Source: a virus (taxonomy: Duplodnaviria; Caudoviricetes). From it: DNA of 56,140 nucleotides. Below, piece by piece: positions 12,433-53,492 of this stretch (position 1 is the first letter of the stretch; each line of letters starts with the position of its first letter). The notes under the pieces are model-generated. The model was not told where the DNA came from. It made no database searches and worked only from the letters and a program-made list of their open reading frames with translations. Position numbers and translations under genes: made by a program. The stretch is from positions 1-56,140 of IMG/VR virus record IMGVR_UViG_3300012005_000007; one strand, written 5' to 3'.

Positions 12433-12656
12433 TGGAGATAACAATTGGTAATTTTGATTACTCAGCTATTATTGATGAAAAAGGTAAAACTGACTGGATT
12501 TATAAAGCTAAAGACTTTATTCCTCCAAAAAAAGTAATTAAAGAACCAGTTCAATATAAAATACAAAACGTAATTGAAAGGTCTTTTAAAGATAACTATC
12601 AAAAAACGTTAAAAACAACAGTAAAAGAACTCATTTTATACATAAATGGCATTTAA
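12432..12656 (+). CDS. Hypothetical protein
   Basis: 74-aa ORF overlapping the next gene start. Confidence 0.55.
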   Translation: MEITIGNFDYSAIIDEKGKTDWIYKAKDFIPPKKVIKEPVQYKIQNVIERSFKDNYQKTLKTTVKELILYINGI

Positions 12657-13788
12657 AACAGTCACAGACCAGCGTAACGCAATAAACATACTTTCAATGT
12701 ATGGAAAATTACCTGAGAAAAAGGTAGAAACAACTCAATCTGAAACTCTTGTAAAGGCGGTGATTGGTAAAACAAGGTCGGGTAAAGAAGTATACAATAT
12801 GACAGATGAGTCTTATGAAAACTTCACTAAAGTTGACCATAAGTTTGCAACTGAATTGTGTAAAGCACAGAATTTAGTTGAAGAAGTTGAATACCACAAG
12901 GAGCGCTATAATGAGTTACAAAAGTCTGAAGCATATAATGGGTTAAAAGACCAGTTTGATATGTTGATAAAGAGTGAGGTAATTGATGAGTTAGAAAAAG
13001 CAGAAGGAGATCATGGGGGAAAAGTCATTGGTCATACAATTAGTGGAAAGCCTATTTACGAAAACCAATCTGCTCATGATTATGTAGGTTTTTCAAAAGA
13101 AGATCATGAAGGTGGAGCTTTACATCACCAAAGGGAAGCAGATAAACATAATAAAGGTACCAAAAAAAATATTTGGCATGAAGCAAAAGCTCATGGTCAT
13201 AAAGAACGCTATAATGAGTTACAAAAGTCTGAGGCATATAACGGGTTAAAAGACCAGTTTGATATGTTGATAAAGGCAGAAGATGACTTAGAAAAAGGTG
13301 GTGAAGGAAGTAGAGGTGGAAAAGTTATTGGACATACCTCTACAGGTAAACCTATTTATGATAATGCAGATAACCCTGCACATAAAAGTTTTGGTACTAA
13401 TGAACATTTTCAAGCAGCACAACTTCATAAAGACCTTGAGAAACATTGGGATTCTAAAATACCTAAATCAGATGGTACAGGTTTTGGTGATAGGCGAGCA
13501 AGAGCCTCGGTTGCAAATGAAAAAGCAAATCACCATTTTGACCAAGCAAATAAACATGAAGAGTCTATGAGGTCAGTTGCTAATGGTGGTTCAAGAGAAA
13601 TAGGTAAAACTCAATCAGGTAAAAGTATAATGAATGACCCTCATCATGAAGACCATAAAGATTTTACAAAACAAGACCATATAGATGCTACAAAAGTTAA
13701 CAGGGATATAGGTAATAAAGAACGTTCTTCTAAAGCACTTGATAGAGCAGATGCTCATAGGGAACTTGCAAAAACTGCAAAAAATTAA
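12646..13788 (+). CDS. Modular His-rich protein with four IG[HK]TxSGK tags (putative capsid-internal cargo)
   Basis: ILSMY leader; LVK|AVIGKTRSGKEVY, LEK|AEGDHGGKVIGHTISGKPIY, LEK|GGEGSRGGKVIGHTSTGKPIY, REIGKTQSGKS. Confidence 0.75.
   Translation: MAFKTVTDQRNAINILSMYGKLPEKKVETTQSETLVKAVIGKTRSGKEVYNMTDESYENFTKVDHKFATELCKAQNLVEEVEYHKERYNELQKSEAYNGLKDQFDMLIKSEVIDELEKAEGDHGGKVIGHTISGKPIYENQSAHDYVGFSKEDHEGGALHHQREADKHNKGTKKNIWHEAKAHGHKERYNELQKSEAYNGLKDQFDMLIKAEDDLEKGGEGSRGGKVIGHTSTGKPIYDNADNPAHKSFGTNEHFQAAQLHKDLEKHWDSKIPKSDGTGFGDRRARASVANEKANHHFDQANKHEESMRSVANGGSREIGKTQSGKSIMNDPHHEDHKDFTKQDHIDATKVNRDIGNKERSSKALDRADAHRELAKTAKN
12895..13275 (+). repeat. Intragenic 78-bp direct repeat (12895-12972 / 13198-13275)
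   Basis: Both copies encode HKERYNELQKSEAYNGLKDQFDMLIK and differ only at synonymous positions. Confidence 0.9.
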
Positions 13789-13800
13789 AAATAGTAAAAT

Positions 13801-13838
13801 AATACACAATTAAAAAAATAATACACAATTAAAAAAAT
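13801..13838. repeat. 19-bp tandem duplication AATACACAATTAAAAAAAT x2
   Basis: Seen directly in the intergenic region. Confidence 0.85.
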
Positions 13839-13844
13839 AAAAAG

Positions 13845-14153
13845 TTGAAATCATTAATTTTTAGCGATATAAATAATACGCTCCTGGTTGAATACAAAGT
13901 AGACCTTATAGGTTCTAATTTAGGAAATTTTACAGTTATGCAGATAAAGGGACTTACTGATGTAGATCATAGTTTACTTGCAATGAACTTCAAACAATTA
14001 AACTATGATGTACCTAGTTTTATAACTTTTGCAAATAATAATTTTCTTAAGTTGACTATAACTGACCAATCTAAAGGAACCTCTTCAGTTTTAGTTGATG
14101 CCACGCCTTTAAGTTCAGGCGGAGGATTTCCGATTGGTAAAGACTTGTTATAA
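13845..14153 (+). CDS. Hypothetical protein, possibly virion-associated
   Basis: 102-aa ORF with TTG start after A-rich leader. Confidence 0.6.
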   Translation: MKSLIFSDINNTLLVEYKVDLIGSNLGNFTVMQIKGLTDVDHSLLAMNFKQLNYDVPSFITFANNNFLKLTITDQSKGTSSVLVDATPLSSGGGFPIGKDLL

Positions 14154-14220: not shown

Positions 14221-14227
14221 ATTATAT

Positions 14228-15631
14228 ATGATACGTAAAGCGGTATACTCACTTTGGCAACCTGGAGGGATTGCAGTAAATGGAGGGTTCTTAAAAAATC
14301 GCCATTTAGGACAAACACTTGCACTTTCACTTGAATACTCCAAAAAACAATTTGAAACAGTTGAACTTGTAACTAATAAGGCAGGGTATGAACTACTGAT
14401 TAAGAAATATGACTTACCTTTCGATACCGTAAAATTTTTCCCAACAGAATTTGATACTCTAAATCCAGATTTCTGGGCATATGCTAAAATTTATGCATAT
14501 TCAATCCAAGAGGAACCATTTATTCACATTGACAATGATGTGATAGTTTTCAACAAAATTCCACAAGAAAAACTTGAGGCACCACTATTATTTCAGAATA
14601 AAGAATATTTTAAAGAACATACAGGGTATACTCGTTTAATAGACGAGGCATTAACTTTTCCAAAACTTGATTTTAGTCTGTTTAAAAACCTACCTCAGTT
14701 TGCATATAATTGTGGGGTGGTAGGCTGTAATTCACTAGAATTTATAGTTGAATGGAAAAAAATTGTAGATGAGTATTTATTTAACCCTCGTAATAAAAAT
14801 ACTTGGGATGGAATAAAAGACAAACATTCTCATAACCACTTATATGAGCAATTTTTTTCTTCTAGTTTAATTAGTAGAGATAACATAAAGGCACAAACCT
14901 TACTTGCAGATGATTTTTATGTATCAACATACAGGGATAAAGTAGGACTTGTACATCTTTGGGGAGCTTCAAAGCGTGATTTAGATACCATGGAACGTGT
15001 TAAACAGCGTTTACTACATGAATTTCCAAAATATAAAGATATATTTGATGTAGAAGAAACTCATAGTGAGATTTTTAGCGATATAATTCGTAGTGAAAAA
15101 TGGGGTAAAGGACAAGGGTCAGGAGGAGGTTCATCAATTGAAATAACTAAAGGGTATAGAGAATTCTTACAAAAATTTCTTAAAGACAAAAATATTAAAA
15201 CCTGCCTGGACTTTGGTTGTGGAGATTGGCAGTTTTCAAAACTAATAAATTGGTCAGGGATAAAATACTTAGGTCTTGATTGTGTACAAAAAATTGTAGA
15301 AGAAAACAATGAACTATATTCAGAAGATAATATAAAATTCCAATACCAATCAGATAATATACTTCTTCATAATAATTATGACCTGTTAATAGTTAAAGAT
15401 GTACTAATCCACTGGTCAAACAGTGAAATAAATGAATTCTTAAAACTTGTAAGAGAACTTGACTTTAAATATATATTAATTACGACACAAGTTGAAGTCG
15501 TTAATAACTACGAAATAAAAACAGGAGAATACCATCCAGTTAATTTAAATGAAAGTCCATTTAATTGTAATTGTGAAGAAATTTTTAAATGGTCTTCGGA
15601 TAATAAAATTACGTACCTTTTAACCAAATGA
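14228..15631 (+). CDS. Fusion of glycosyltransferase-like (DUF6734-like) domain and class I SAM methyltransferase
   Basis: WAYAKIYAY..QEEPFIHIDND (DxD), YNCGVVG, EQ and HLWG motifs; C-terminal WG..GSGGGS and LDFGCGDW. Confidence 0.7.
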   Translation: MIRKAVYSLWQPGGIAVNGGFLKNRHLGQTLALSLEYSKKQFETVELVTNKAGYELLIKKYDLPFDTVKFFPTEFDTLNPDFWAYAKIYAYSIQEEPFIHIDNDVIVFNKIPQEKLEAPLLFQNKEYFKEHTGYTRLIDEALTFPKLDFSLFKNLPQFAYNCGVVGCNSLEFIVEWKKIVDEYLFNPRNKNTWDGIKDKHSHNHLYEQFFSSSLISRDNIKAQTLLADDFYVSTYRDKVGLVHLWGASKRDLDTMERVKQRLLHEFPKYKDIFDVEETHSEIFSDIIRSEKWGKGQGSGGGSSIEITKGYREFLQKFLKDKNIKTCLDFGCGDWQFSKLINWSGIKYLGLDCVQKIVEENNELYSEDNIKFQYQSDNILLHNNYDLLIVKDVLIHWSNSEINEFLKLVRELDFKYILITTQVEVVNNYEIKTGEYHPVNLNESPFNCNCEEIFKWSSDNKITYLLTK

Positions 15632-16545
15632 TACTAACCCCAAACCAAGTAGAGGAACTACTCAAAATTATAGACCACAACCACTTGGTCTTCATTGGAG
15701 AAAATCTGGGGATAGAATATTTATCAACCTCAGATAAAGAAGTATTAACAAATTCCGGAATAGACATCAATGACCTTTACCTACCAGAAAATGATGCACT
15801 ACTAACAAGTTTTCATCTTGGACTGTTATCCGATGCACTGCGAGACAATATAAACACACTTTCCTTTGATGACTTAAAAAACTATGTAAAGAAAGGTCAT
15901 TATATACCACTTACTCAAACAGAAAAATATACACTTAATATCATAAAAAACCAGGCATTAAAAGATATAAAAACGTTAAAGGGAAATATATTTAACGATG
16001 TTAACCAAATATTGGTTGATAAAAGTTTAGAAGGACAGAGAAAATTTTTGAGAGAAGAACAAACAAAAGGACTATACGACAAAAAAACAGTAAAACAAAT
16101 CGCCAATGATATTGCAAGAAAAACCGGTGATTGGACAAGAAACTTTGACCGAATAGTAGAATACAATTGTCAATCAGCATTTGAAGGAGGAAAGGCGGAA
16201 TATATCGCAAATACTTACGGAGAAGACTCATTAGTGTACAAGTCTGTTTTTGAAGGTGCTTGTAAACATTGTGTAAGTCTTTATTTGACAAAAGGGGTAG
16301 GAAGTGAACCAAGGATATTTAAATTGTCTGAACTTATAGCGAACGGTACAAATATTGGTAGGAAAACAGCTGAATGGAAACCGACAATTTCGCCCCTACA
16401 TCCTTTTTGCAGGTGTATGTTATTCTATACACAAAAGGGGAATAAATGGAATCCTGGTTCAAAATCTTTTGATATAACTACTCCTTCAAAAAGAATACGA
16501 CCAAAAGTTGAACTAACAATTGGTGACAAAAAATATTGGGTTTAA
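15628..16545 (+). CDS. MuF / SPP1 gp7-like minor head morphogenesis protein
   Basis: RIVEY..., ACKHC and PLHPFCRC motifs; head-gene context. Confidence 0.8.
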   Translation: MILTPNQVEELLKIIDHNHLVFIGENLGIEYLSTSDKEVLTNSGIDINDLYLPENDALLTSFHLGLLSDALRDNINTLSFDDLKNYVKKGHYIPLTQTEKYTLNIIKNQALKDIKTLKGNIFNDVNQILVDKSLEGQRKFLREEQTKGLYDKKTVKQIANDIARKTGDWTRNFDRIVEYNCQSAFEGGKAEYIANTYGEDSLVYKSVFEGACKHCVSLYLTKGVGSEPRIFKLSELIANGTNIGRKTAEWKPTISPLHPFCRCMLFYTQKGNKWNPGSKSFDITTPSKRIRPKVELTIGDKKYWV

Positions 16546-16790: not shown

Positions 16791-18566
16791 ATGGACAAAC
16801 TTCCTATAGACATACGTAAAGCACAAATTTTATCAATGTATGAACCTGACTTAGAAAAAGGTGGGGTAGGCTCAGGGAGAGTAATAGGACATACAAAATT
16901 AGGTTCTAAAGTATACGAAAACTATAACCACCCCTCTCACAAAGATTTTACTTCCTCTGAACATCTTGAAGCAAGTAATATTCATGCTGATTTAAATAAC
17001 CCAAAGTCTACTTTAACCCATACTCAATCAGATGAAGCTTCTGCACATCATTTTAGAGAACATGAAAAAAGAGAAAAAGCTGAAGAGGGTTTAATAAATG
17101 AATTTAGAAAAAAAGATCCTACATTTTTAGGACAAAATAAAATACAAAAAAGTGAAGAAGAAACTATCTCACAACTCAAAAAATCCATAGAAGATAAAAA
17201 CAATTTAAATAAAGCCTTTGATATCTTAAACGACAAAGATATGTTATGTAAAGCAATCGGACGGACAGGACTTACTCCAAAAAAAGTCACCGTAACAATG
17301 AAAAACGGACAAACTCATCAAGCAATCAGGTGGGTAAATGAACATGATGAAGCACCAAGTCTAAAACATGTATATAAAAATGTAGGAGAAGACGTAACGG
17401 GTGATAATTCAGAACAACGAATCCACAACATTGTTAATCATGACTCTATGTCTCCTGACCTAAAAGTCAAAAATCTTGCACATGAAGGCATCTATGACAA
17501 AGATACACTTTCTAACCTTACTGGTGCAGCACCTCAAAAAGCATACGATATACTCTACAATGCGGGCGTTAAACATAAAGAATTCCGAGATGACCACAAA
17601 GCATTATTAGGAGGTTCAGAAATTTTACCGAAAGATCCAGTGACAGGAGTACAGGTTCCGGTGTCGATGGCGATACATGAGGCGAAGGAGGCACTTAAAA
17701 CTAATGATTTTGAAAAATACCGTGTAGAAAAACAAAGAGAACTTGCTGCAAAATATGGTGTATCAATGGATAACCGTTGGGAGGCATATAATAGAAAACT
17801 AAGAGATACAATACAAGTTGGTTACCCAAGATCATTAATTGCATTTGGGCTCGGCGGGTTGGGTAAAACGTATGATTTTGAACAAATTGCACAAGAATTA
17901 GAGTTAAGACAATACGATGATGACCCTGAGTTGGGTGGTATGGATAATGAAGACGAATATGATTATGTTCTTTTGTCAGGGTCACTTAGTAAAACTGATA
18001 TGTGGAGGCAATTATGCCAACATAAAAATAAATTAATTGTATTTGATGACTTAGATTCTATTTGGGATACTACAGGGGGAGATGATATGGTTAATTGGCT
18101 TAAGAAAATTTGTGATACTACAGGAGATGGGGTAGTACGTAATGGTAATGGTGATAAAGTAAAAGATATCAATGGTGAGCCTTGTCCTAGAATGTGTAAG
18201 TTTAGAGGACGTATTATAAGTATAACTAATCTTAAAGCTTCTGATTTACCTCAACCACTTATAGACTCAAGATCAGGTTCTATTGATTTAACAATGAATA
18301 TGGACCAAACATTAGAAAAAATTGATAAAATCAAGTATAAAATAAAACTAAAAGATGATAAGGGGGAAGAAATAACTGCTTCAAAAGAAGATAGGGAATT
18401 AATGGTAGATTTTTTAAAGGAATTTAAAGACTACCTTAGAATTGAGCAAGTTAACGGTAGAACTGCTGGTCAGATTATAGGAGATGCACAATCTTTAAGG
18501 AGATTAGGTAAATTTTCTAAAGAAGAATTTTATAAAGCTGCATTAATTTCTTTAAGAATTGTATAA
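16791..18566 (+). CDS. Tagged modular protein with C-terminal P-loop/AAA-type ATPase
   Basis: ILSMY leader, LEK|GGVGSGRVIGHTKLGSKVY tag; Walker A GLGGLGKT, Walker B LIVFDD, IISITN and SR. Confidence 0.75.
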   Translation: MDKLPIDIRKAQILSMYEPDLEKGGVGSGRVIGHTKLGSKVYENYNHPSHKDFTSSEHLEASNIHADLNNPKSTLTHTQSDEASAHHFREHEKREKAEEGLINEFRKKDPTFLGQNKIQKSEEETISQLKKSIEDKNNLNKAFDILNDKDMLCKAIGRTGLTPKKVTVTMKNGQTHQAIRWVNEHDEAPSLKHVYKNVGEDVTGDNSEQRIHNIVNHDSMSPDLKVKNLAHEGIYDKDTLSNLTGAAPQKAYDILYNAGVKHKEFRDDHKALLGGSEILPKDPVTGVQVPVSMAIHEAKEALKTNDFEKYRVEKQRELAAKYGVSMDNRWEAYNRKLRDTIQVGYPRSLIAFGLGGLGKTYDFEQIAQELELRQYDDDPELGGMDNEDEYDYVLLSGSLSKTDMWRQLCQHKNKLIVFDDLDSIWDTTGGDDMVNWLKKICDTTGDGVVRNGNGDKVKDINGEPCPRMCKFRGRIISITNLKASDLPQPLIDSRSGSIDLTMNMDQTLEKIDKIKYKIKLKDDKGEEITASKEDRELMVDFLKEFKDYLRIEQVNGRTAGQIIGDAQSLRRLGKFSKEEFYKAALISLRIV

Positions 18567-18742: not shown

Positions 18743-18762
18743 TTTCTTTGTATATTTGGTTA

Positions 18763-20013
18763 ATGAAAAAAAGATTACCTACTAGTACAGATTTAATTTG
18801 TGGAACGCATTGTGTTTATAGACATATTCGACCAGATATTAATCAACCCTTTTATGTAGGTATAGGAAAAGATTCTTGGAGACCTTATGCAAAAAGTAAA
18901 GGTGAAAGAAATGAAGATTGGTATAAAATTGTTGATGAACTTAAAGAAAAAGGATTAGAACCTATAATTGAGATTCTTTTTGAATACCTTACTTTAGAAC
19001 AAGCATGTGAAAAAGAGATAGAATTCATTTCTTTACACGGGAGGGTAGATAAAGGTACAGGGATTCTATGTAATTGGACAGATGGTGGTCTAGGTTTTAA
19101 TGGTATTGTTTACCATGAAAAAAGAATTGAAAAAATGAAATTAATCAGGAGTAGTCCTGAGTATAAAGAAAATCTTGCAAAACAAGTAAGTGAAAGACAT
19201 AAAATAAATCCTAATAATTATAAACCTACTTTAGAGCAAAGGCAAGCTGCAAGTGATAGGAATAAAAATAGAGAAAAATTTCCTTGCAAATATTGTCAAA
19301 AGTTATGTGATAAACAAAGTATTGACAGGTGGCATAATGAAAATTGTAAAAAAAGTCCAACTTATATAACTAAAATAAGTGAAAAAGTTATTTGCAATTT
19401 TTGTCAAAAGGAAGTTATTAAAGGTAAATATCAAAATACCTATCATTTTGAAAATTGTAAAAAAAATCCAGATAATATAAATCTTAAAAAAGGTGATAAA
19501 GAAATCCAATGTCCTTGGTGTTTAAAAGATGGTAAAAGAAAAAGTGGTATGGGCTTTCATATTAAAACCTGTAAAGAAAATCCTGAAAGAATTATAGTAG
19601 AAGTAAAAACCGTTACTTGTCCTTGGTGTAATAAATCAGGTAAAGCTACAGGGATGCATACTACTCATTTTGACTATTGTAAAGAAAACCCTAATAGAAT
19701 TAATAAAGATAAAACTTGTATTCATTGTAATTATAATGGTAATTCAGGAACAATTAAAAAATATCATAATGAAAACTGTAAATTATTAGGTGATAAAAGA
19801 GAAAAAATTTATAATACCCCTCACCACCAAAAAGAAATACTTAGGATAGCTAATACTGGTAGAAAAAAATCAGAAGAAACATTAAAGTTACTTTCTTTAA
19901 ATGGTTATTTTACTAAAATAGCAAAAGAAAAAGAAACCTGCCCCCACTGCGACTTTATCAGTAACAAAGGTAATGTAGTAAAACATATAAAGAGAAATCA
20001 TCCAAATGTCTGA
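18763..20013 (+). CDS. GIY-YIG-like homing endonuclease with tandem CxxC...HxxxC zinc fingers
   Basis: CVYRHIR...PFYVGIG...R, E..FI...GR....GILCNWTDGG; ATG 18763 follows a TATATTTG box (18751-18758). Confidence 0.75.
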   Translation: MKKRLPTSTDLICGTHCVYRHIRPDINQPFYVGIGKDSWRPYAKSKGERNEDWYKIVDELKEKGLEPIIEILFEYLTLEQACEKEIEFISLHGRVDKGTGILCNWTDGGLGFNGIVYHEKRIEKMKLIRSSPEYKENLAKQVSERHKINPNNYKPTLEQRQAASDRNKNREKFPCKYCQKLCDKQSIDRWHNENCKKSPTYITKISEKVICNFCQKEVIKGKYQNTYHFENCKKNPDNINLKKGDKEIQCPWCLKDGKRKSGMGFHIKTCKENPERIIVEVKTVTCPWCNKSGKATGMHTTHFDYCKENPNRINKDKTCIHCNYNGNSGTIKKYHNENCKLLGDKREKIYNTPHHQKEILRIANTGRKKSEETLKLLSLNGYFTKIAKEKETCPHCDFISNKGNVVKHIKRNHPNV

Positions 20014-22349: not shown

Positions 22350-22739
22350 ATGATAAACGAATTTAATAAAGGTAATGCGAGTAGAATATTAGCTTGTTAT
22401 TCCAATGCAGATGAACTTTTAAAAGGTGGTGAGGGTAGTAAGGGAGGAAAAGTTATAGGACATACCAAATCTGGAAAACCTATTTACGAAAGAAGTAAAG
22501 AAGTAATGAGTAAGTACTCTGATTTTTCAAAAGAAGACCACCAAGATGCTCAAAAAGAACATATTAAACATGCTGAAAAATATGCAGATGAAGAACAAAA
22601 AAACTTATCTGCATCAAATAAAGATTATTTAGAAGGTAAAGATAACTCTAAAAACCATGATAAATATTCTCATTCTAAAATTAAAAAAGAAGAACATATT
22701 GACCATGGTTCTTGGCATAGAGAAAGATCTAATGATTAA
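22350..22739 (+). CDS. Small tagged His-rich protein
   Basis: ILACY leader; LLK|GGEGSKGGKVIGHTKSGKPIY; FSKEDHQDA. Confidence 0.75.
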   Translation: MINEFNKGNASRILACYSNADELLKGGEGSKGGKVIGHTKSGKPIYERSKEVMSKYSDFSKEDHQDAQKEHIKHAEKYADEEQKNLSASNKDYLEGKDNSKNHDKYSHSKIKKEEHIDHGSWHRERSND

Positions 22740-22910: not shown

Positions 22911-25900
22911 ATGGAAGATTTAATTGAAATACCAGGGGGATTATTATCAAAATCTTATCTTGGAGAATTATATAATAAATACATTGTAAGCCCCTTTCAA
23001 GATACTTTTGGTCTTAAAAAATCAAAAGAGAAAACTGTTTACTGTGATGCAATAGTACTAAATTATTTAGGACAGTTACTTATCTTACAACGTTCTTATA
23101 ACGCCTCATTTGGACCAGGAAAATGGTCATTACCAGGCGGGCATCTTGATCCAGGAGAAACAATACAACAAGGTGCAGAACGTGAACTTGATGAAGAAAC
23201 AGATATAATTGCAGACCTTGAATTTTTACAAACTATAGAAAAAGAAGATTGTACAATTCATTACTTTACAGGAAATGTAACAGATCCACAACTCATTTTG
23301 GATAATGAAGAACATTACAGATTTGAATGGATAGACACATCTGAGATACCTGAATACGATTTCTTACTAGATCTTGGTACTACACTTTCAAATTTATTTC
23401 CAAATTTTGTAGAAGAACCAATTGAAAATAATGAGGAACCAAATCTTAATTTAGCTGATGAACTAGATAAAAACTATGAAATAGTAAAAGTCGAATTTGA
23501 GAAGGGTAATGTAGATCTTGATACATTTTTAGATTATACACTTAAATATAATATTCTAAAAAAATCAGAAGGCTCCCGTGGAGGTCATATTATTGGACAT
23601 ACGAAAAGTGGAAAACCCATTTATGAAGACCACAACCATCCCTCACACCAAAACTTTACCCATCAAGACCATGAGGATGCAGAAACAGCTCATGCTAATA
23701 TTGGTAATACTTTAAAGAGAAATTCTTCAGATTGGAAACACCATTGGAATGAAGGAGGAAAACATTATGATAGTTCTAAAAATAAAATGGTAGAAGAACC
23801 AACTTTTAAAATAGACAAAGAAGATAAAGATGGTTTTTCAGCTGTACATTATTCTGACCAACCAGATTTTGAAAAAGGTGGAGAAGGCTCTCGTGGAGGT
23901 AAAATAGTTGGACATGATAAAAATGGTAAAGCGATATATAACTCAGGTGAATTAGTTGGTAATAACCAAATTCCTTACCATAGATCTCAATCAGTAACTT
24001 ACCATAGAGATTACGAATTTGGTAAAACAGGAACTGAAACTGCAAAAGTAGTTAGTGTAAACCCACATTCTGGTCATGTATTACTGGATAATGGACATGA
24101 TCTTCACCATATAGAACTCCAAAAAAGAGAAGGACGTGGAAGTAAAATAGTAAAGAGTGAGATAACTGATGAAGAAATAGATGAACTCATCAAAGGTGCC
24201 CGTGCCCAAATTGGAGAGGTACGTACATGGGGTAAAGAAAAATGGGTAAAACACATTGATGGATGGGTACACGTTTCAGACAAAGGTAAACATATACTTG
24301 AACGCCCAGGAGGTAAACGTGAAGTTGCAAGTGAAAGTCATGTAGAACATGCTAAAAAGTATTTAGAAAATAAATTACCATCAGGTTCAACTACTGAAGA
24401 AAGAGAAAAGTTTAGAGAGGAAAATAAACCAGAGGAAATTGATAACTTTTCAGAATTTAAAGATATAGTAAATACCTCCTCTTCACTTGAAGAAGCATTT
24501 AATAAAGTAAAAAACAAAAAAGATGTACCAAATCAAACTGCAAGAGAATTTAGAGATAGGTTCGACCCTGATAATGAATTAACACCACTTCAGGCATTTA
24601 CAAAATTTTATGATGAGGTAAAGAAAGTAGATAAACCTGGAGAGTGGGTAATGGGGTATACAAAAAGTGGTAAACCAATTCATTCAGGTTTTGAACATCC
24701 TGACCATAAAAATTTCACAAAAGAAGACCATAAGGATGCAGCTGAACTAATTGGTCAAAACCAAACTATATTCCAGAAGTTCAATAGAAGTTCTACTGAC
24801 CCTGAGGAAAATGATAAGATGATTAAAATGGGTGAACAGAAACTTAAACATATTGAGAGTAGTAAAGATGAGTTTGAATGGAAGAAAAATAACTTTGGAC
24901 ATGATTTATACCATAATGGTGAAAATACAACTTTAGGTGCAAAAAAAGAAAGTGATAAAAAAGGTGTAGAGGAACTTTATAGAAATTCTCCTAATTATAA
25001 AATTTCAAACAACACTAAAAAGAATGTAAAAGAAGGTAAAGTAGACTTAGGCATAGAAGGTATTAGTTTTAATTATAAAATTAATAATGAGGGTTTTTAT
25101 GATATATACGAGGATAAAACTGAAACCAAAATACCAGTTATGTCACCAACATATACTTTATCTGAGGCAAAAACCGATGCAATTAGCTATATAAAAAATG
25201 ATATAGGTTTAGAAAAGTTTAAATCTTTGGTTGAAAACTTTAAGAAACCAGTTGAAACTGAAATAGAAAAGAAAGAAAAAACAACTGACTTACACCGTGA
25301 AGAACATAACCAATTAGTAAACTCAAGAGATAGATCTTTAAGTAGATTATCTGAAACTCGTAAAAAATATGGTTCAGGTTATGGTAAAATGGAACCATGG
25401 AAACGTGCAGCATTAAAAAGAGATGAACATGAAGTTGATAAGTCAAATAAAAAAATTGACCAATTTAAATATAACCATACTGAAGTTCGTAAAGCATTAA
25501 AAGAAGTTGGTATTTCTGCATCTACAACTCAAACAACTGCAATCAGAGGTTTTACTAATGAGTCTAAAGGTTATAATTTAAATGAAGGTGGTTATAATCC
25601 AGATCTTTTAAGTTTAAACCATATATCACTTGAAAAATTTGAAGAAGTAAAATCTGCACTTGAAAAAAGAGGTTTTGAAATAATATCCTCTTCACCACCT
25701 TCTAAAATAATTGCAGGAGGTTCATCTGCAAGTATAAAGTTTGAACCATATCATAAAGATGAAGATTTAAAATTAAAAAAGATCCAAAAGGCAGATGATG
25801 ACTTAATAAACGCACTAATCAAAGCAAAAGAAGTTAAAAAACCTGAAGATAAAGACAAAGAACCAACCGAAGATGAACAACGCCTAGGTACTGCAGATCC

Positions 25901-26645
25901 TCATTCAGATTACAAACTTAAAAAACATGCTCGTAGTGCCTCAGAAGAAAGTTTAAATAAAACAATCAAAGGATCAGGTGATGAAAAACTACGAAAAATT
26001 GCACATAAAGAACTTGACCGTAGAAAGAAAGAAGAACACATCAAAGATGAAAAAGAAAAAGCAGCAATTGCAGCTGCAAAGAAACCACTAAAAAAAGGTG
26101 AAGAAAACTTCTTTGAAACTACCGCTAAGGAGTTTGAAAAAATTTTAGATAAGGCAGTAGGTGATGAAAATACACCAGTTGAAACTAAACCTAATGAAAT
26201 AAAAACTGATAATCATGTGGTAAGTACAGACAAAGATCTTGAAGTAACTGCAGAGGTTGGTCCTGATAAAATGGAGAAGGGAACTTATGTTGATAATTAT
26301 GAAAACAGACATGAAGGAATAGTGGGACAAGAATATCACCATACAGAAAAAATTGAAGATGATAGACCTGCAAATATTAAACTTGAACATAATATAAATA
26401 CCACACTTGGTAATATGATGAAAGGTATATATTATGAAGATGGTTTAAATGACCAACAGTTATATAGTCTTGACCTTCTTGCAGAAAATTGGAGTATAGA
26501 TCCACTTCACTATATTTCAGACATAACTAAATCTGACTTACCAAACCAAACACATACAGTTAAAATAATTGACCAACGTAATAACCAAACACTGGTAACT
26601 GCGGATATTGACAGTGCAGGGAAGTTGTCAAATGTAGTTTTATAA
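22911..26645 (+). CDS. 1244-aa modular polyprotein: Nudix hydrolase plus multiple tagged modules
   Basis: Nudix box GGHLDPGETIQQGAERELDEETDI; three GHT/GYT tags; AQIGEVRTW tag; many xxK|[GAS] sites. Confidence 0.8.
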   Translation: MEDLIEIPGGLLSKSYLGELYNKYIVSPFQDTFGLKKSKEKTVYCDAIVLNYLGQLLILQRSYNASFGPGKWSLPGGHLDPGETIQQGAERELDEETDIIADLEFLQTIEKEDCTIHYFTGNVTDPQLILDNEEHYRFEWIDTSEIPEYDFLLDLGTTLSNLFPNFVEEPIENNEEPNLNLADELDKNYEIVKVEFEKGNVDLDTFLDYTLKYNILKKSEGSRGGHIIGHTKSGKPIYEDHNHPSHQNFTHQDHEDAETAHANIGNTLKRNSSDWKHHWNEGGKHYDSSKNKMVEEPTFKIDKEDKDGFSAVHYSDQPDFEKGGEGSRGGKIVGHDKNGKAIYNSGELVGNNQIPYHRSQSVTYHRDYEFGKTGTETAKVVSVNPHSGHVLLDNGHDLHHIELQKREGRGSKIVKSEITDEEIDELIKGARAQIGEVRTWGKEKWVKHIDGWVHVSDKGKHILERPGGKREVASESHVEHAKKYLENKLPSGSTTEEREKFREENKPEEIDNFSEFKDIVNTSSSLEEAFNKVKNKKDVPNQTAREFRDRFDPDNELTPLQAFTKFYDEVKKVDKPGEWVMGYTKSGKPIHSGFEHPDHKNFTKEDHKDAAELIGQNQTIFQKFNRSSTDPEENDKMIKMGEQKLKHIESSKDEFEWKKNNFGHDLYHNGENTTLGAKKESDKKGVEELYRNSPNYKISNNTKKNVKEGKVDLGIEGISFNYKINNEGFYDIYEDKTETKIPVMSPTYTLSEAKTDAISYIKNDIGLEKFKSLVENFKKPVETEIEKKEKTTDLHREEHNQLVNSRDRSLSRLSETRKKYGSGYGKMEPWKRAALKRDEHEVDKSNKKIDQFKYNHTEVRKALKEVGISASTTQTTAIRGFTNESKGYNLNEGGYNPDLLSLNHISLEKFEEVKSALEKRGFEIISSSPPSKIIAGGSSASIKFEPYHKDEDLKLKKIQKADDDLINALIKAKEVKKPEDKDKEPTEDEQRLGTADPHSDYKLKKHARSASEESLNKTIKGSGDEKLRKIAHKELDRRKKEEHIKDEKEKAAIAAAKKPLKKGEENFFETTAKEFEKILDKAVGDENTPVETKPNEIKTDNHVVSTDKDLEVTAEVGPDKMEKGTYVDNYENRHEGIVGQEYHHTEKIEDDRPANIKLEHNINTTLGNMMKGIYYEDGLNDQQLYSLDLLAENWSIDPLHYISDITKSDLPNQTHTVKIIDQRNNQTLVTADIDSAGKLSNVVL

Positions 26646-27878: not shown

Positions 27879-29390
27879 ATGACTCCACAAGATAAACAAA
27901 ACTCAGAAAGAATTCTTGATATGTACACTTCAGACCTTGAAAAAGGTGGAAAACGTGCAGAAATTGGTGAAGTAAGAACTTGGGCAGGACAAAAATGGGT
28001 AAAACATACAGATGGTTGGGTACATATATCCGAAAAAACTGGAAAACACCTTCTTGAATTACCAGGTGGTAAAAGAGTATCTGCCGAACCCCACCATATT
28101 GAACATGCTAAAAAATACTTGAGTAGTAATAAGGAAGTTGGAAGTCTTAAAAAACTAAATAATGGAAATATAAAAACCTTAATAAATGGTAAGGAATATA
28201 TATTTGGTTTTAATGCAGATGAAAGTGGTATATATGGAATAGTTCTACCAGGGGAAGAAACTTTTAGTAATATAAATAAAGGTGAAGCAAAAAAAATATA
28301 TGAAAAGTATAGTGAAGAAATCTTAAAATTTTCAAAAGAAAAACTTTCAACCAACAGTAATATTGTTGATTATGCAGCACGTATGTTTGGAACAGCCGAA
28401 TATCCAGTCATAAATAAAATACTGATTGAAGTTCAACCAAAACTTGATGCAGTAGTTGAGGCGACACGTAAATTTTGTGAAAACCATGAACCAAATCCTT
28501 TAAAATTTGATGAGCGTGATAAAGAATATTGTGAAATAGAAACAATAGGCAAACTTTTAAGTTCACTAGGAAAATATATTAAGAAAACAGATAAAATTTC
28601 AGAGCGTTACCCAATGACTTTTTCTAATACTGCAAAAGGGGTAGAAATAAAATCTCAAATTGAACGAGAAGGAAAAGTATATAATTTTGATACAGATTGT
28701 ATAACCGCAGGTGGATATAATATTCAGGCATGGCATTATCGTTATTTAATCAAAACAGACTTACCCGCAATTCATAACCCTTTCACCGCAAAAATTGAAA
28801 ACCGGGTGAAGGCAATGAAGAAAGAAGATAAACTGGTTGAAGAAATAAAAAGAACAGAAGGGTACCTTGAACGTACAAAATCTGAATACGAAAAAATTAA
28901 AGATATAACCAAAGAAATTTCAGATAAAGAATGGGAAGATAAATACTCTTATCCTAAAACTTATGAAGAAACAAATGAAGGGTCTCATTTAAGAAATCAA
29001 GGACCTGAAAAATTTTATGACTACATAGCTCAAGAAAAAGCAAGGCATTACGAAAGAATTCAAGAACAAGTTAAATATCTACCAAAACAAATCAAACAAC
29101 AAGAAAAAGAAGTTCAAAAGTATAAAGACAAACTAGAAGAAACCATTAAAAATAAATGGAACGAAATTGAAGAACCAGCCGAAGGTGATTTTAAAATAAT
29201 TCGTGACCGTCAAAATTATGGACGTCAACCAGGAATCCATTTACACAAATTTGAAAACGGAAATTATAAACGGTTAGTTACTACTTATGGTAAAAATGTA
29301 CGATCTGCAGGGTTTGACCCGTACAAGGATGAAGACATAATAAAATATTATAACTGGAAGAAAGAAAATCCAGATAAACCAAAAGACTAG
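27879..29390 (+). CDS. Tagged modular protein (AEIGEVRTW tag; AGGYNIQxxHYRY domain; coiled coil)
   Basis: ILDMY leader, LEK|GGKRAEIGEVRTW; ~55-aa block shared with the 22911 protein. Confidence 0.75.
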   Translation: MTPQDKQNSERILDMYTSDLEKGGKRAEIGEVRTWAGQKWVKHTDGWVHISEKTGKHLLELPGGKRVSAEPHHIEHAKKYLSSNKEVGSLKKLNNGNIKTLINGKEYIFGFNADESGIYGIVLPGEETFSNINKGEAKKIYEKYSEEILKFSKEKLSTNSNIVDYAARMFGTAEYPVINKILIEVQPKLDAVVEATRKFCENHEPNPLKFDERDKEYCEIETIGKLLSSLGKYIKKTDKISERYPMTFSNTAKGVEIKSQIEREGKVYNFDTDCITAGGYNIQAWHYRYLIKTDLPAIHNPFTAKIENRVKAMKKEDKLVEEIKRTEGYLERTKSEYEKIKDITKEISDKEWEDKYSYPKTYEETNEGSHLRNQGPEKFYDYIAQEKARHYERIQEQVKYLPKQIKQQEKEVQKYKDKLEETIKNKWNEIEEPAEGDFKIIRDRQNYGRQPGIHLHKFENGNYKRLVTTYGKNVRSAGFDPYKDEDIIKYYNWKKENPDKPKD

Positions 29391-32476: not shown

Positions 32477-33946
32477 ATGATTAGTTTAGCTGATTACCAA
32501 GATGGATTTCTTGGTACAGAACAAGAAGGTCTGCAAGAGTTGCAAAAAGCAATGGTTGCGGGCGAAATTACAGGTAGGGATATAACCAACTTACCTTTAA
32601 CTCAAGAACCACTTAAAGTGGAATCACTTGAAAAAACACTTAAATTATTGGATTATCGTCCAAGTGATATTAAGTTATGGGGTGCAGTTCCTAAAATGGT
32701 TGCATATAATACAGTAGAAGAATTCTTGCAATTGCAATCTTATGGTTCTGATGCAAACTTTTATGATGAAGGTGAGTTATCTGATGTAAGTGACTCTACT
32801 TATGTAAGACGTGCAACTTATGTTAAATACATACAACAAACTGGTGAAGTTACAATTCAAGCTCAAATGGTTAAGTCGTATGTTGAGGCCTATGGTCAAG
32901 AATGTAAGAATAAATTAATGAATGTGTTACGTTCTGCAGATAAGTATTTAACTAATGCAGATAGTGATATAATTCCTCAACAATTTGACTCTTTCTACAA
33001 ACAACATGCTTCTATTGGTGGTACACCAGAGTATCTATATCCAAACTTTGAAGCTTATTATAATTCAGGAGTCGTAGTTGATATGCGTGGAAAGTCAATT
33101 AAACAAATTGATATTGAAAGTGCTGCTGTAAATGTGGATAGCCATTATGGTACTGCTAACGTACTATTTGGTCCAACTTCAGTTATCTCAACTATATCTC
33201 AGGATTATTTTGAGACACAACGTATTATGTACGGTGGTGGAGTTAACGCAGCTGTAACCGGAGTAGGTGTAAATATCCAGGAAATTTCCACAACTATGGG
33301 CCCAATTAAGTTAATGGGTGATAAGTTTATGAAAGCAGACCCTGCTCATTTACTTACCGATGCAGCCACCAATGCAAAAGCACCAGCTGCACCAGCAACT
33401 GTAACTGCTACTTTGGCCGCAGATAGTATGTGTCATTATTTGACAGCTGAAATAGGTAATGTTTATTATGCAGTAGCAGCTATTAATCGTTATGGTCAAT
33501 CTAACTTAACTCCTATTGGTTCTGCAATAGCAATAACTGTAGGTGATAGAGTTGATCTGGCAATAACCGCAGGTACTGGTGCAAATGCAGCTTCAGGTTA
33601 TTATATCTACCGTACAGCAGTAACAACTGCAGGTTCATCTACTGGTTTAACTTTTTACCCACTGTTTAAAGTTTCAGCTACACAGTTGACTAATGGTTAT
33701 AACAATGCAGCTGCTGGTCATATTGGTGACTTAGGTTACTTCTTACCAAATACAGAAGGGGCGTTTGTAACACAGATGGATGATGAAGTAATGGCTATTA
33801 AGCAACTTGCTCCTCCATCAAAACTTGATTTGGCAGTAATTTCAATGAGCCGTAGGTTTATCGTGTTCTCATTTTTATCGTGTGTCTTGAGCGCACCTCA
33901 AAAATTTGTGAGATTCATAAATGTGGGCAGGACACACACAGTTTAA
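32477..33946 (+). CDS. Major capsid protein (Herelleviridae-like precursor)
   Basis: PLKVESLE, EGELSDVSDSTYVRR..VKY, QFD, VVDMRG, LAP..KLDLA and APQKFVRFINV; propeptide ends ELQK24|A. Confidence 0.92.
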   Translation: MISLADYQDGFLGTEQEGLQELQKAMVAGEITGRDITNLPLTQEPLKVESLEKTLKLLDYRPSDIKLWGAVPKMVAYNTVEEFLQLQSYGSDANFYDEGELSDVSDSTYVRRATYVKYIQQTGEVTIQAQMVKSYVEAYGQECKNKLMNVLRSADKYLTNADSDIIPQQFDSFYKQHASIGGTPEYLYPNFEAYYNSGVVVDMRGKSIKQIDIESAAVNVDSHYGTANVLFGPTSVISTISQDYFETQRIMYGGGVNAAVTGVGVNIQEISTTMGPIKLMGDKFMKADPAHLLTDAATNAKAPAAPATVTATLAADSMCHYLTAEIGNVYYAVAAINRYGQSNLTPIGSAIAITVGDRVDLAITAGTGANAASGYYIYRTAVTTAGSSTGLTFYPLFKVSATQLTNGYNNAAAGHIGDLGYFLPNTEGAFVTQMDDEVMAIKQLAPPSKLDLAVISMSRRFIVFSFLSCVLSAPQKFVRFINVGRTHTV

Positions 33947-41958: not shown

Positions 41959-42657
41959 ATGGAAGACATTTTAAAAAAGGGTAGAGGACACCGTGCAGAA
42001 ATTGGTGAAACTCGTATTCATGCAAACGGAAAATGGAAAAAAACAGGACCAGGTTCAAACGGTTGGACCCTCCTAAAAGATATTCACCGAGCAAAATCTG
42101 ATGGTCATGAAGCACACGTCCATACCGTAACTCCAGAAAAAGTTTACTTCCATGTTCATGATAAAGATGGAAATAAAGTTGCAAACGGAAAATTAAAACA
42201 TGAAGATTTTAGAGAAAACTATACACCTGTTCTAATTAATCATCCAACTATTGGTTCTGACTCTCATGTTCAAACCTACTTTATGGGACAAGATAACTTA
42301 CCAGTAGATACCTCAATTACTGAAGATGAGGACGAGGAAGGAGTATCTGATAATATCCGTCCACTTATTAATGATGATGACTTAGATGAGGTATTAGAAG
42401 ATGATCTGCCTGAAATAATTACAGATGAAGCTGATGAAGACGAATTAGAAGATGAGGCAATAAGTCCTTATAAATTAAATCTACAAACTGATACACTGGG
42501 ACGAGTAACCGGTTATACAATTGGATCACTAGTTCAATTTTTAACAGATGGTCGTAAAAAAGAAGGAAGGGTTGAAGATATTGCAGATAATGGAATATTA
42601 ACAGTGAGTACAGGAAATACAAACCATTACATATCCCCAATGAGGTTAGTAGGATAA
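41959..42657 (+). CDS. Tagged protein (AEIGETR tag, acidic linker, SH3-like C-terminus)
   Basis: LKK|GRGHRAEIGETRIHANGKWKKTG..NGW. Confidence 0.65.
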   Translation: MEDILKKGRGHRAEIGETRIHANGKWKKTGPGSNGWTLLKDIHRAKSDGHEAHVHTVTPEKVYFHVHDKDGNKVANGKLKHEDFRENYTPVLINHPTIGSDSHVQTYFMGQDNLPVDTSITEDEDEEGVSDNIRPLINDDDLDEVLEDDLPEIITDEADEDELEDEAISPYKLNLQTDTLGRVTGYTIGSLVQFLTDGRKKEGRVEDIADNGILTVSTGNTNHYISPMRLVG

Positions 42658-52500: not shown

Positions 52501-53007
52501 AAGTTTACCTCATTTTTACAACAAGCTCAAAAACTTGGTTGGAATCCAATAATTAAAGATGGTAAACGTAGTTATGCACAGCAATTAGAATACTATAAAA
52601 AAACTCCTGAACTTTATAATAATATACCTCCAACCACAACCGCCCCTCATGTTGCAGGTTTTGCAATTGATGTAAACTTTGTTAATAGTTCAGGTACAAA
52701 TTTAGGACAGAAAACTCCAAAATCTGAGTGGGAATTAAGTGGTATTACAAAAATTGCAGATTCACTTGGTTTAAGGTGGGGTGGAACATTTACTGGTGGT
52801 ACTGATAATAATCATTTTGATTATAAAGGTAATTCAAACCAAAATAGTCAACCACAACAAATTACGGAAAATACTTATACAACTCAAGAGGTACCTGATG
52901 AAACCAAATTATTACAAAATTTTGTAGTAGATAGAGACATATTTGGATTCTTTTTACGTAAACAGCAGATACAGTATGCAAATACCGAATTTATAAATAG
53001 GACTTAA
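49588..53007 (+). CDS. Baseplate hub / tail-associated protein with M15 peptidoglycan peptidase domain
   Basis: VSGRDLSKL, RRPPY and RKGTLVLNGDRRIKIG hub motifs; inserted GKRSYAQQ...PHVAGFAIDV...GLRWGG..DNNHFD. Confidence 0.75.
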   Translation: MDFYTVTFSSSELKTVGDYLTSDVCPIELPDDNYNPVTLYSHAKDFLSWTDDKITNLDRILASYTPSELAAYNSSPNPTFSPVLTSPLIVKLKTGVKFVIPQDKVNRYGIVNQGLQIVSTDEPTFKAHELVKLESDRGYNHTDGPIPSSVENGIVRQYYPNITIWVWCRALSENNPIPQTSGSFINNLKGQIFDLSPFIIRSQTSVGKNGGNFDITLPPLVCEFEGGHWVVKKNSIKSTISKITGNNEYLSQESFSKINTSTSSLERNQFLFHNILSTNDLVFIRFETLNMESEQRYSDATNFFLNKDRLGGRIYDMIGLIDSNSFSYNPETNDVSIQVSGRDLSKLFIDDGAYFYALELSQGKANFASSQAKNVLTQRVFFDNARGFQNLYYNNSIENVFRFVIQQLSTIGVVPDDLFTSYVDKSKSDGSTFGQTGPLGLLGIIKKHDNDRRNYQYQPSGQSQNEQQKSISITDGYITKAKNELSRLRKLYGYQYMDTGQNVVNQKGEEDEINTTYNLLYDFISFLREPDNQKTTVRQVTGNTTSGWKPVFYNSTNLQSNQFPTDFNIFPNQFTQPINGNTYLSSAVSQLISYIDNVIDSQKSSDYQEIPVEKLSTGIWQIIDLVLDSSIAARRLVDSSISSSQGSLLNFFRKACQDPFVEYFSDTYSDKFVLTIRRPPYNAEGVKTLLNGKVKTEITSQAVTGSTITINEHNVLQESLSFDDTEVYSWYNLKPIASMSAGAANFATAYLPAIYLPEYAEIWGSRPYEAVSNYIPYLPLDNKNVKISTELKQCYIDLAYLVESHAHLPFTRKGTLVLNGDRRIKIGNLIRYEPTGEIFLVDAVSQTYMINEGKVDRTTTVQVSRGMIEQLIYGVDIQFGSHTKKVSYFNIVNTDLNFNLTKTIVVTTPKTVNNPNYSPTSDSTDNSGDPLKTPETLQQTILSSFQKITNPLILSGYNLWYIQKLDISVQSKFTSFLQQAQKLGWNPIIKDGKRSYAQQLEYYKKTPELYNNIPPTTTAPHVAGFAIDVNFVNSSGTNLGQKTPKSEWELSGITKIADSLGLRWGGTFTGGTDNNHFDYKGNSNQNSQPQQITENTYTTQEVPDETKLLQNFVVDRDIFGFFLRKQQIQYANTEFINRT

Positions 53008-53054
53008 TTTTGTTTTTAAATAATATATACATATTTTTATAAAAATTTTAAAAA

Positions 53055-53492
53055 ATGGTTAATAATCTAAATAAAGGTAGAGCTGCAACAATATTATCTT
53101 GTTACTCAAATGTGGATACAATTTTGAAATCTGAAGATAAAGGTGACCTAGAAAAAGGTGGAGAGGGGAGTCGAGGTGGAAAGGTTATCGGACACACTCA
53201 AAGTGGAAAACCTATTTATGAAACTTCAGAACATACTAAAAAAGTCCTAAAAACCTTAGATAAGCATGTTTCAGTGAACCATACTCCTGATGAAAATGGT
53301 CATCATGAAATTACTTATGCTCGAGAAGAGTTAGGCAGGTATGAACCTGAAAATAAAAGAGTTGTACTAACAAATAATATTGGTTATTATCAAGATGGAA
53401 GATATAATGTAGAATTAGGTCCTCATCAAGGACGTTTTGAAAGAGATTTAGAGAACCATGAGGTACATGTACATGATGAAGATTATGAATAA
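53055..53492 (+). CDS. Small tagged protein
   Basis: ILSCY leader; LEK|GGEGSRGGKVIGHTQSGKPIY. Confidence 0.75.
   Translation: MVNNLNKGRAATILSCYSNVDTILKSEDKGDLEKGGEGSRGGKVIGHTQSGKPIYETSEHTKKVLKTLDKHVSVNHTPDENGHHEITYAREELGRYEPENKRVVLTNNIGYYQDGRYNVELGPHQGRFERDLENHEVHVHDEDYE

Follow-up and report, generated by a model that had tools for sequence, protein, structure and literature searches.

A shared N-terminal leader on late proteins of a Bacteroidota-type myovirus as a candidate capsid-targeting sequence

Do otherwise unrelated late proteins of a tailed phage share an N-terminal address that brings them into the prohead? The question is raised by a 56,140-bp stretch of the viral record IMGVR_UViG_3300012005_000007 (hereafter the window), in which a preliminary description had noted five open reading frames (ORFs) that begin with an alignable leader around I-L-x-x-Y, each followed by a predicted Lys cleavage site. 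These ORFs are named here by their first nucleotide (12646, 16791, 22350, 27879 and 53055; Table 1). The window is part of a Bacteroidota-type myovirus and probably represents about one third of a large phage genome, since a 129-aa protein identical to that of ORF 22350 is on record from a 173,639-bp contig. Experimental evidence for N-terminal packaging signals comes, to our knowledge, from a handful of phages at most (T4 and P1). The probability is put at about one half that the leader is a docking propeptide of packaged proteins, removed by a protease and working like the capsid-targeting sequence (CTS) of phage T4. This reading draws on features established by computation, namely sequence pattern, position, recurrence, modular exchange, gene context and the fold of the protease. 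Alignments further show that the leader opens a cassette of three parts, which recurs in about 2,000 protein clusters.

The leader and the modules behind it

All five leader peptides were located on the + strand where the preliminary description had placed them. I-L-x-x-Y falls within residues 12–19 of each protein, with Ile at residue 12–15. The ATG of each ORF follows an upstream in-frame stop by 0–8 codons, so that the start codons are forced and the leaders stand at true N-termini. A 15-residue hidden Markov model (HMM) built from the five was run against 398 six-frame ORFs of at least 40 aa; the five scored 19.9–27.9 bits and the next ORF 7.2 bits. Motif discovery at the N-termini, which had been proposed as a check, was carried out by blind single-linkage clustering of residues 2–26 from 140 ORFs, comprising 56 ORFs of the window and + strand ORFs of at least 80 aa from the five closest related loci. 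One 16-ORF cluster with several members per genome was obtained, including 16791, 22350, 27879 and 53055, and the remaining clusters were all trios or quartets of orthologs. Four of the five leaders were thus grouped as paralogs, but 12646, the most divergent of the five, stayed below the threshold.

The Lys expected 5–8 residues past the leader was also found, with Tyr-to-Lys distances of 6, 6, 8, 6 and 8 in genome order. The P-E-K-K site of 12646 is atypical, and a canonical L-V-K37/A lies 18 residues past its Tyr. Within the window the leader is encoded only in the late structural gene cluster. That the leader is missing from non-tagged ORFs, as stated earlier, is true of its canonical form but has to be narrowed for ORF 8373, which has a divergent leader-like start. 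ORFs 22911 and 41959 contain the downstream modules and no leader at all.

When the first 100 residues were aligned, the elements appeared in a constant order: the leader, (D/E)-L-(E/L)-K-G-G, and a hairpin-like motif of two forms. The hairpin form, G-K-V-I-G-H-T-K-S-G-K-P-I-Y, is present in 22350, 53055 and 16791 and four times in 12646 (nt about 12763, 13027, 13327 and 13600). The module of 22350 is canonical (GGEGSKGGKVIGHTKSGKPIY) and that of 16791 a variant (GVGSGRVIGHTKLGSKVY), which is followed by a P-loop NTPase-like domain (aa about 295–559; phrog_1250). In 53055, I-L-K25/S and D-L-E-K34/GG come after the leader and a canonical module follows. Instead of the hairpin, 27879 has a 'W-type' motif, A-E-I-G-E-V-R-T-W-A-G-Q-K-W-V-K-H-T-D-G-W, within the module AEIGEVRTWAGQKWVKHTDGW. 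In the leaderless 22911 three hairpin modules (aa about 217, 318 and 575) are joined by one of the W type (aa about 425), and degenerate modules are found in 8373 past LEKGG (aa 141) and LEKGL (aa 203).

The consensus of the W-type module is G-E-x-R-x-W/F-x-G-x-K/R-W/Y-x-K-x-x-D/G-G/K-W. It stands behind hydrophobic-x-K sites and replaces the GHT hairpin in some proteins, being found in 27879, 22911 and 41959 of the window and at four places in L001, the related locus of Chryseobacterium phage MA9V-3. In the part of MA9V-3 that was analysed it was the sole module type seen.

Searches of the five leader ORFs against Pfam, PHROGs and NCBIfam gave no family for the leader or the module. The sole family match was phrog_1250 in the C-terminal domain of 16791, and each of the five has one recognisable domain at most. 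ORFs 22350 and 22911 were also considered as one split gene; this was rejected, as NUDIX-bearing homologs have an N-terminus of their own (MNIFxxIRxLFG) with the modules downstream.

Structure prediction of the tag of 22350 (AlphaFold2 on a 36-sequence alignment) gave a helix at residues 2–18 (pLDDT 80–87), a disordered stretch at residues 19–36 (pLDDT about 52) that holds E-L-L-K-G-G-E-G-S-K-G-G, a beta bridge in V-I-G-H-T-K-S and a long helix at residues 61–100 (pLDDT up to 96).

Recurrence, exchange and putative processing sites

Outside the window, a word-indexed search with 22350 returned 113 proteins of similar length, every one with the hairpin core, and 213 longer proteins, the 120 listed of which have 1–5 cores each. 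In an exhaustive profile search the family comprised 1,951 clusters with E no higher than 0.001, of which 1,278 also passed 1e-10. In an alignment of 34 homologs (A2), the core K-GGEGS(K/R)GG-K(V/I)IGHTKSGKPIY keeps 14 invariant columns among sequences about 35% identical. The module GGEGS(K/R)GGKVIGHTKSGKPIY is near-invariant and, on these searches, undescribed. Its core had no match in Pfam, PHROG, NCBIfam or PDB sequences, a PDB sequence search with the tag profile gave 0 matches, and the motif strings had 0 matches in 8.4 million papers and preprints. For 22350, Foldseek of the model found nothing at E up to 0.001, and the ESM Atlas gave no usable match by features, its structure rows all having TM <0.5. 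With matches missing from Pfam, PHROG, NCBIfam, PDB and the papers searched alike, the module is a sizeable blind spot of phage annotation. Domains fused to it in long members include NUDIX, Zeta-toxin and AAA, which are frequent partners, and ferritin, LPD1, DUF6496 and DUF5661. At least 9 of the 120 long members listed (9 by regular expression, 13 by eye) are homologs of the window protease with the module 1–5 times in a C-terminal extension.

The leader of these homologs is specific to the N-terminus to a large extent. An iterated leader HMM matched 32 of 232 homologs, always starting within the first 35 aa, and gave 0 matches in both reversed and shuffled sets. With a regular expression written post hoc, after the data had been seen, and applied to aa 6–36, the strict form matched 83 of 232 homologs (6.9 in shuffles) and the loose form 113 (14.5 in shuffles). 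The strict form occurs upstream of 75 of 218 N-proximal modules and of 12 of 295 internal ones (shuffles about 7), and the leader Ile lies at residues 11–21 in 98 of 113 cases. Some internal modules do, however, stand behind a looser element, 'hydrophobic-K-K-S/A-F/Y'. Among the 2,836 distinct ORFs of 68 viral loci, 13 of 14 leader matches were N-terminal, with none in reversed sequences; they were confined to the closest relatives, with up to 4 tagged ORFs per locus.

The N-terminal cassettes are exchangeable. For instance, 53055 and its positional ortholog L004+4433 agree at 50 of their first 55 residues and have nothing in common beyond these, in a locus whose lysin is 80% and whose baseplate proteins are 73–90% identical to those of the window; another leader of L004 stands before a counterpart of the 53055 C-terminal domain (56% over 101 aa). 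The 94%-identical ortholog of 27879 (P0309) keeps the leader, and distant domain homologs (P0310, P0311) are without it. The P-loop domain of 16791 has three different N-terminal tags in three phages: I-L-S-M-Y plus LEKGG in the window, D-L-I-K-A-K-G plus a W-type module in MA9V-3, and ...N-L-S-S-F...N-R-K-L-G-R-V-G in Bacteroides phage DAC19. The leader itself is found ahead of the W-type module in 27879 and of other sequences in L014+3250 and L004+8167.

The DAC19 tag (N-L-S/Q-S/G-F ... G-I/F-Y-x-D ... N-R-K-L-G-R-V-G) is present in at least four DAC19 proteins, including the homolog of 16791, at the loci L072 356–3801 and L003 14503–16161. It may be a second, analogous tagging system.

With regard to gene context, five whole viral records contain 23 module matches in all, which in each record are gathered in a single span of 0.5–18 kb; two of the five records have terminal repeats and are rated 100% complete. 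A homolog of the portal, protease, capsid, sheath or ORF 15628 is present in 57 of the 68 loci. In L004, L005, L014 and L051 the tagged genes are located between neck, tube and baseplate genes, like small cassettes inserted into the late operon.

A putative cut site of the form hydrophobic-x-K accompanies these modules. The 16,998 window residues contain the motif [LIFMV][EQ]K[GSA] 33 times, concentrated in few proteins (Table 1), with single copies at residues 22–25 of the capsid protein and 19–23 of the portal. In the 68 viral loci, 83 of 89 modules have a hydrophobic-x-K-[GSA] site within 16 residues upstream. Such a site was also found in 102 of 104 proteins with a leader, no more than 40 aa past the leader Tyr/Phe (median 9). 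Among capsid proteins of related loci with an intact start, 16 of 16 show hydrophobic-x-K-A at residues 20–31, always ahead of a conserved A-(M/L)-x-A-G, and 23 of 24 portals have a hydrophobic-x-K site in their first 45 residues, against a background in which 34% of 855 ORFs contain hydrophobic-x-K-[GSA] in the first 45 aa. The equivalent place reads A-L-N-K-A in 9vel Gp6.1, which we take to be a protein of phage SPO1, and N-L-N-K-A in phage SP10. A homologous capsid protein in the PDB has 463 residues in 5lii (presumably that of Staphylococcus phage phi812) and 439 in 9row; since the alignment offset is 24, the shorter form starts right after V-V-K24, and the difference in chain length might reflect maturation after K24. 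A search for literature on capsid-protein cleavage sites in Herelleviridae found nothing usable. The stretch 'ESLEK/T' at capsid aa 50 was rejected as the maturation site because its Lys is not conserved (N in DAC19, S in SP10), and the stretch is conserved as part of the fold.

The candidate enzyme is encoded by ORF 30635. Its AlphaFold2 model comprises a beta-rich domain (aa 8–155; pLDDT 62–85), a disordered acidic linker, a helical region (about 229–475) and a confident small C-terminal domain, a predicted layout that is that of a protease-scaffold fusion. Foldseek placed three chains of T4 gp21 (5jbl) on top (E 2.5e-4, probability 1.00; TM 0.60 by target), with herpesvirus proteases ranking next, and the putative catalytic residues H68 and S128 are invariant in 16 sequences. 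A PDB sequence search with the protease profile returned chance matches only (E at least 0.3). No module is present in 30635 itself. The leader does not mimic a scaffold segment, since profile-profile alignment of the tag with the protease-scaffold gave a probability of only 0.45%; compared by eye, scaffold C-termini showed no resemblance to the leader either.

Proposed packaging of leader-bearing proteins and rival readings

If the leader works like a CTS, the products of the five ORFs would be precursors, destined for loading into the phage particle. The first 17–19 residues would form a short, mostly polar helix ending in a small hydrophobic patch, I-L-x-x-Y, and the flexible stretch behind it would hold a hydrophobic-x-Lys/Gly-Ser-Ala site like those of the capsid protein, portal and scaffold. 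Up to its removal, the leader would most likely act as a docking element particular to the lineage, through which the precursor enters the prohead during assembly. There the gp21-fold serine protease 30635, placed inside the prohead by its fusion to the scaffold, would cut at the hydrophobic-x-Lys site and remove the leader, and the near-invariant hairpin module behind the cut would remain on the mature protein. We infer cleavage, packaging and docking of the tagged proteins from these features. The data fit a set of precursors made late, with exchangeable N-terminal cassettes and with hydrophobic-x-K as the place where the prohead protease acts, and the comparison with the T4 CTS and the DarB signal of phage P1 is therefore apt as an analogy.

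The T4 CTS is found on internal proteins such as IPIII and is removed by the gp21 prohead protease, whose site is L/I-x-E. Both that site and the one described here have a hydrophobic P3 and a charged P1, the charge being reversed in the window, where P1 is Lys and not Glu. In both phages a short N-terminal leader stands on otherwise unrelated proteins; the leader here ends at a putative prohead-protease site, and the protease has the gp21 fold. Unlike the T4 signal, the leader comprises about 17–19 residues plus a linker and is followed by a near-invariant module. The comparison with the T4 CTS that had been drawn is partly supported: the leader is unrelated to it in sequence, as had been said, and no T4 internal-protein family matched the five ORFs (0 relevant matches in the family libraries of Pfam and PHROGs, by which they were compared); moreover, the leader is N-terminus-specific, precedes a capsid/portal/scaffold-type site and unrelated downstream domains, and is encoded in a late cluster with a gp21-fold protease. 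Against the likeness, many family members are leaderless, including 22911, 41959 and homologs starting with the module. According to passages of PMC9024508, the T4 CTS suffices to load foreign proteins, and an N-terminal signal of more than 9 and up to 30 residues directs DarB, a large injected anti-defence protein of phage P1, and a reporter into the capsid. The leader described here is likewise N-terminal, and its packaging is put forward by analogy; unlike it, the DarB signal is known from one protein, with no shared leader family and no adjacent conserved module.

Other systems resemble the cassette in part. The prohead protease of giant phages has the consensus S/A/G-x-E. In phiKZ and SPN3US, a lineage different from that of the window's phage, one such protease processes many packaged proteins at a short consensus site, and the abstracts of these accounts name no common leader (PMC10052503, PMC7411985). 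The polyvalent proteins described by Iyer et al. (2017; PMC5512222) combine several disparate enzymatic domains in one chain, have genes next to those of the portal and head, and are predicted to be packaged and then injected; a term search of the main text of that paper found no description of the leader or module. Long homologs with the module are similar in combining NUDIX with Zeta-toxin, AAA and LPD1 domains, a multi-effector architecture, or in bearing ferritin domains, as are in part, in the window, 22911 (NUDIX plus modules) and 20006 (zincin HEIGH motif). The LPD families had no match among window proteins. The window's capsid protein is homologous to those of the Herelleviridae type and, as there, has hydrophobic-x-K followed by A/S about 24 residues in; unlike the leaders, however, that putative propeptide belongs to the capsid protein and not to cargo. 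We know of no report of leader-tagged cargo in Herelleviridae.

The leader signal is unevenly strong, and several results weigh against a packaging leader. In leave-one-out tests of the HMM, the best non-training match was 12646 (11.7 bits), 22350 (18.7) or 53055 (15.4), and 16791 and 27879 were not among the top rows, so that three of five were recovered. A leader profile made from foreign homologs only was weak on the window, ranking 22350 first (12.5 bits) and 53055 second (7.7), with 4.5 bits for 16791 and 2.6 for 27879 and with 12646 outside the top 15. The hydrophobic moment did not exceed that of shuffled sequences in any of the five, meaning that the predicted helix is not amphipathic, and that description of the leader was dropped. 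Clear internal leaders exist (RILDIY near aa 270 in P0161 and P0135). Some homologs begin almost directly with the module (e.g. P0082, P0092, P0117 and P0172), and 110 of 218 N-proximal modules, about half, show no leader-like pattern even with the loose regular expression. The module is far better conserved than the leader, and alignment A2, which gives the 14 invariant columns, consists of homologs hand-picked for leader presence. ORF 53055 and its relatives lie among tail and baseplate genes rather than head genes. The maturation proposed after K24 of the PDB capsid protein is our own reading of chain lengths.

The many members that lack the leader lead to the main rival reading, which is possible though less likely: the real address would be the GGEGS(K/R)GGK(V/I)IGHTKSGKPIY module or its W-type counterpart, which would bind an invariant prohead partner (the protease, the inner face of the capsid or DNA) and position the adjoining Lys site, the leader being an accessory propeptide that, for example, keeps the downstream domain inactive or times its processing. 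The 14 invariant columns at about 35% identity, the 1,951 clusters, the leaderless occurrence in 22911 and many homologs, the copies in the C-terminal tails of prohead proteases and the near-constant spacing of 83 of 89 modules directly behind hydrophobic-x-K-[GSA] are in its favour. Nevertheless, the leader also precedes the W-type module and other sequences; it is therefore a separate unit, conserved in its own right and set at a constant distance from the N-terminus, and the protease-scaffold of the window has no module. As the sequences stand, N-terminal specificity, the fixed distance from the start, variation between lineages and independence of module type would make the leader the address, and near-invariance and presence in leaderless members and protease tails would make it the module. 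The two roles could also be divided. Tentatively, the three-part cassette might serve a large clade of Bacteroidota phages as a general, so far undescribed means of getting cargo loaded and processed, in which the hairpin would dock to the gp21-fold protease or the capsid interior and mark each cut of a polyprotein, scaffold included, and the leader would set which lineage's prohead accepts the cargo.

It is improbable that the leader stays uncut as the first helix of a stable N-terminal domain (helix, hairpin and His-rich helix) that anchors the proteins in the mature particle or binds DNA or metal, the Lys motifs merely following linker composition in a Lys-rich proteome. The high background of hydrophobic-x-K-[GSA] among the 855 ORFs and the confident AlphaFold2 helices on both sides of the linker would suit such a domain, but the linker between leader and module is predicted disordered and its length ranges from a few residues to over 60, which makes it a poor fit to one compact domain. 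Moreover, the narrower motif reaches 10–20 times expectation in exactly the scaffold and the tagged proteins, its position is conserved in 16 of 16 capsid proteins, and the leader stands before modules of different kinds. A bacteriocin-type secretion leader (...K-G-G/), in which a C39 peptidase-ABC exporter cuts behind a double glycine, is brought to mind by the short N-terminal leader ending in G-G with a hydrophobic residue at –4; such an origin is highly unlikely, as a Pfam scan of 53 window proteins found no C39 peptidase or ABC transporter, downstream domains are as long as 591 aa, site and module are repeated internally, the equivalent capsid and portal sites lack G-G, and all the genes belong to a phage late operon. 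Chance resemblance of five N-termini in an AT-rich genome with a Lys/Asn-rich proteome can hardly be credited either. Pairwise scores over residues 2–23 were clear only for 22350/53055 (72) and 16791/27879 (39), the maximum of 20 shuffles being 36, several others fell within the shuffle range, and the leave-one-out test misses two of five; against this stand the gap between 20–28 and 7 bits, the absence of matches in reversed and shuffled controls, the blind 16-ORF cluster and conservation in orthologs.

If the cassette is such a general system, about 45 added residues would be enough for a protein of any kind to be packaged and delivered into Bacteroides or Flavobacteria. A family-wide leader defined by sequence, together with a conserved cut-site module, would provide a compact tag for loading proteins into gut Bacteroides and Flavobacteria phages. 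It would also predict which proteins of uncultured Bacteroidota phages enter the cell with the DNA; such proteins, with NUDIX, Zeta-toxin-like, AAA and P-loop domains, would be candidate anti-defence or takeover effectors. In addition, the specificity with which a gp21-fold protease cleaves at a P1 Lys would follow from it. Cultured relatives are Chryseobacterium phage MA9V-3 and Bacteroides phages of the DAC series.

Phage identity and neighbouring genes

Nearly all genes of the window are on the + strand, and genes for sheath-like, tube, tape-measure and M15 tail-lysin proteins follow the capsid gene. The nearest capsid protein in the phage collection is that of MA9V-3 (56% identity), followed by Bacteroides phages SJC03 and DAC (36%) and then Herelleviridae (about 27–31%); its homologs in the PDB are 9vel Gp6.1 (E 1.8e-37), 5lii and 9row. 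A search of 185,579 species genomes gave just two occurrences of the tag family, on contigs of metagenome-assembled genomes labelled Flavobacteriales and Bacteroidales. A tblastn search of 50,697 phage records with 53055 gave three matches only, all at E 0.8. Coordinates of the features are collected in Table 1.

Table 1. Leaders, related proteins, head genes and putative cut sites in the window, with counts of [LIFMV][EQ]K[GSA]
Feature	Position (nt)	Strand	Gene or protein	Sequence features	Motif observed/expected
Divergent member 8373	8373..9401	+	342 aa, directly 5' of portal	leader-like start DRRNNLINTLEKSYY	6/0.26
Portal	9404-10972	+	Pfam Phage_portal, E 9.9e-27		
Putative portal processing site	9479..9490	+		L26-K27-K28/A29; I-Q-K22/G site just before	
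Leader of 12646	12646..12720	+	ORF 12646-13788, 380 aa	DQRNAINILSMY (aa 8-19); I15-L16-S-M-Y19, then P-E-K25/K	4/0.29
Leader of 16791	16791..16859	+	ORF 16791-18566, 591 aa	DIRKAQILSMY (aa 7-17); I13-L14-S-M-Y17, then D-L-E-K23/GG	
Leader of 22350	22350..22424	+	ORF 22350-22739, 129 aa	NKGNASRILACY (aa 6-17); I13-L14-A-C-Y17, then E-L-L-K25/GG	
Leaderless multi-module protein 22911	22911..26645	+	1244 aa	N-terminal NUDIX domain	4/0.75
Leader of 27879	27879..27944	+	ORF 27879-29390, 503 aa	KQNSERILDMY (aa 6-16); I12-L13-D-M-Y16, then D-L-E-K22/GG	
Head maturation protease (scaffold fusion) 30635	30635-32347	+	phrog_1028, E 1.7e-32		6/0.48
Major capsid protein	32477-33946	+	phrog_752, E 4.4e-63		
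Putative capsid maturation site	32540..32551	+		L22-Q23-K24/A25; motif conserved among relatives	
Leaderless protein 41959	41959..42657	+	232 aa	start MEDILKK/GRGHRAEIGETRIHANGKW, site then W-type module	
Leader of 53055	53055..53129	+	ORF 53055-53492, 145 aa; between tail lysin and baseplate genes	NKGRAATILSCY (aa 6-17); I13-L14-S-C-Y17	

Several neighbouring genes deserve mention. The sole sizeable minus-strand gene (6265–7440) is of the TnpB/IS605 OrfB type (OrfB_IS605, E 3.3e-28) with a Cas12f1-like TNB domain, and it separates early-type genes from the late operon. Three free-standing homing-endonuclease genes are inserted in the structural operon on the + strand: an endonuclease-like gene (18748–20013), a GIY-YIG gene with NUMOD1/3 just 5' of the protease (29488–30582), and a GIY-YIG gene just 3' of the capsid gene (34042–35031), a homolog of which is present at the same place in L051. 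Directly 3' of the portal, two membrane-like ORFs and a lipoprotein-like ORF (MKRLIGLIVVLFLVSCS) occupy 10953–12297 (+), and MA9V-3 has the same trio 3' of its portal (L001 39819–41480, –).

Among the head genes, 14228–15631 (+) encodes a protein with DUF6734 (E 4.3e-48) and a methyltransferase-like character. The 305-aa protein of 15628–16545 (+), conserved near the portal in many related loci at 25–55% identity, shows a weak sub-threshold match to the SPP1 gp7 minor-capsid domain (E 0.012) and is probably a head protein of the MuF/gp7 type. The 779-aa head-module protein of 20006–22345 (+) has a zincin-type H-E-I-G-H near aa 469 and family matches that are all sub-threshold; it may be a metallopeptidase of the polyvalent-protein kind. 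Five tandem 10-residue repeats, SSSATI(K/E)T(L/W)(G/D), are encoded in 26718–27269 (+). Further downstream, the 717-aa late protein of 38055–40208 (+) starts with a Bacteroidota-style signal peptide (MRKILFILLFIPFILKAQN), which is unusual in a virion gene cluster.

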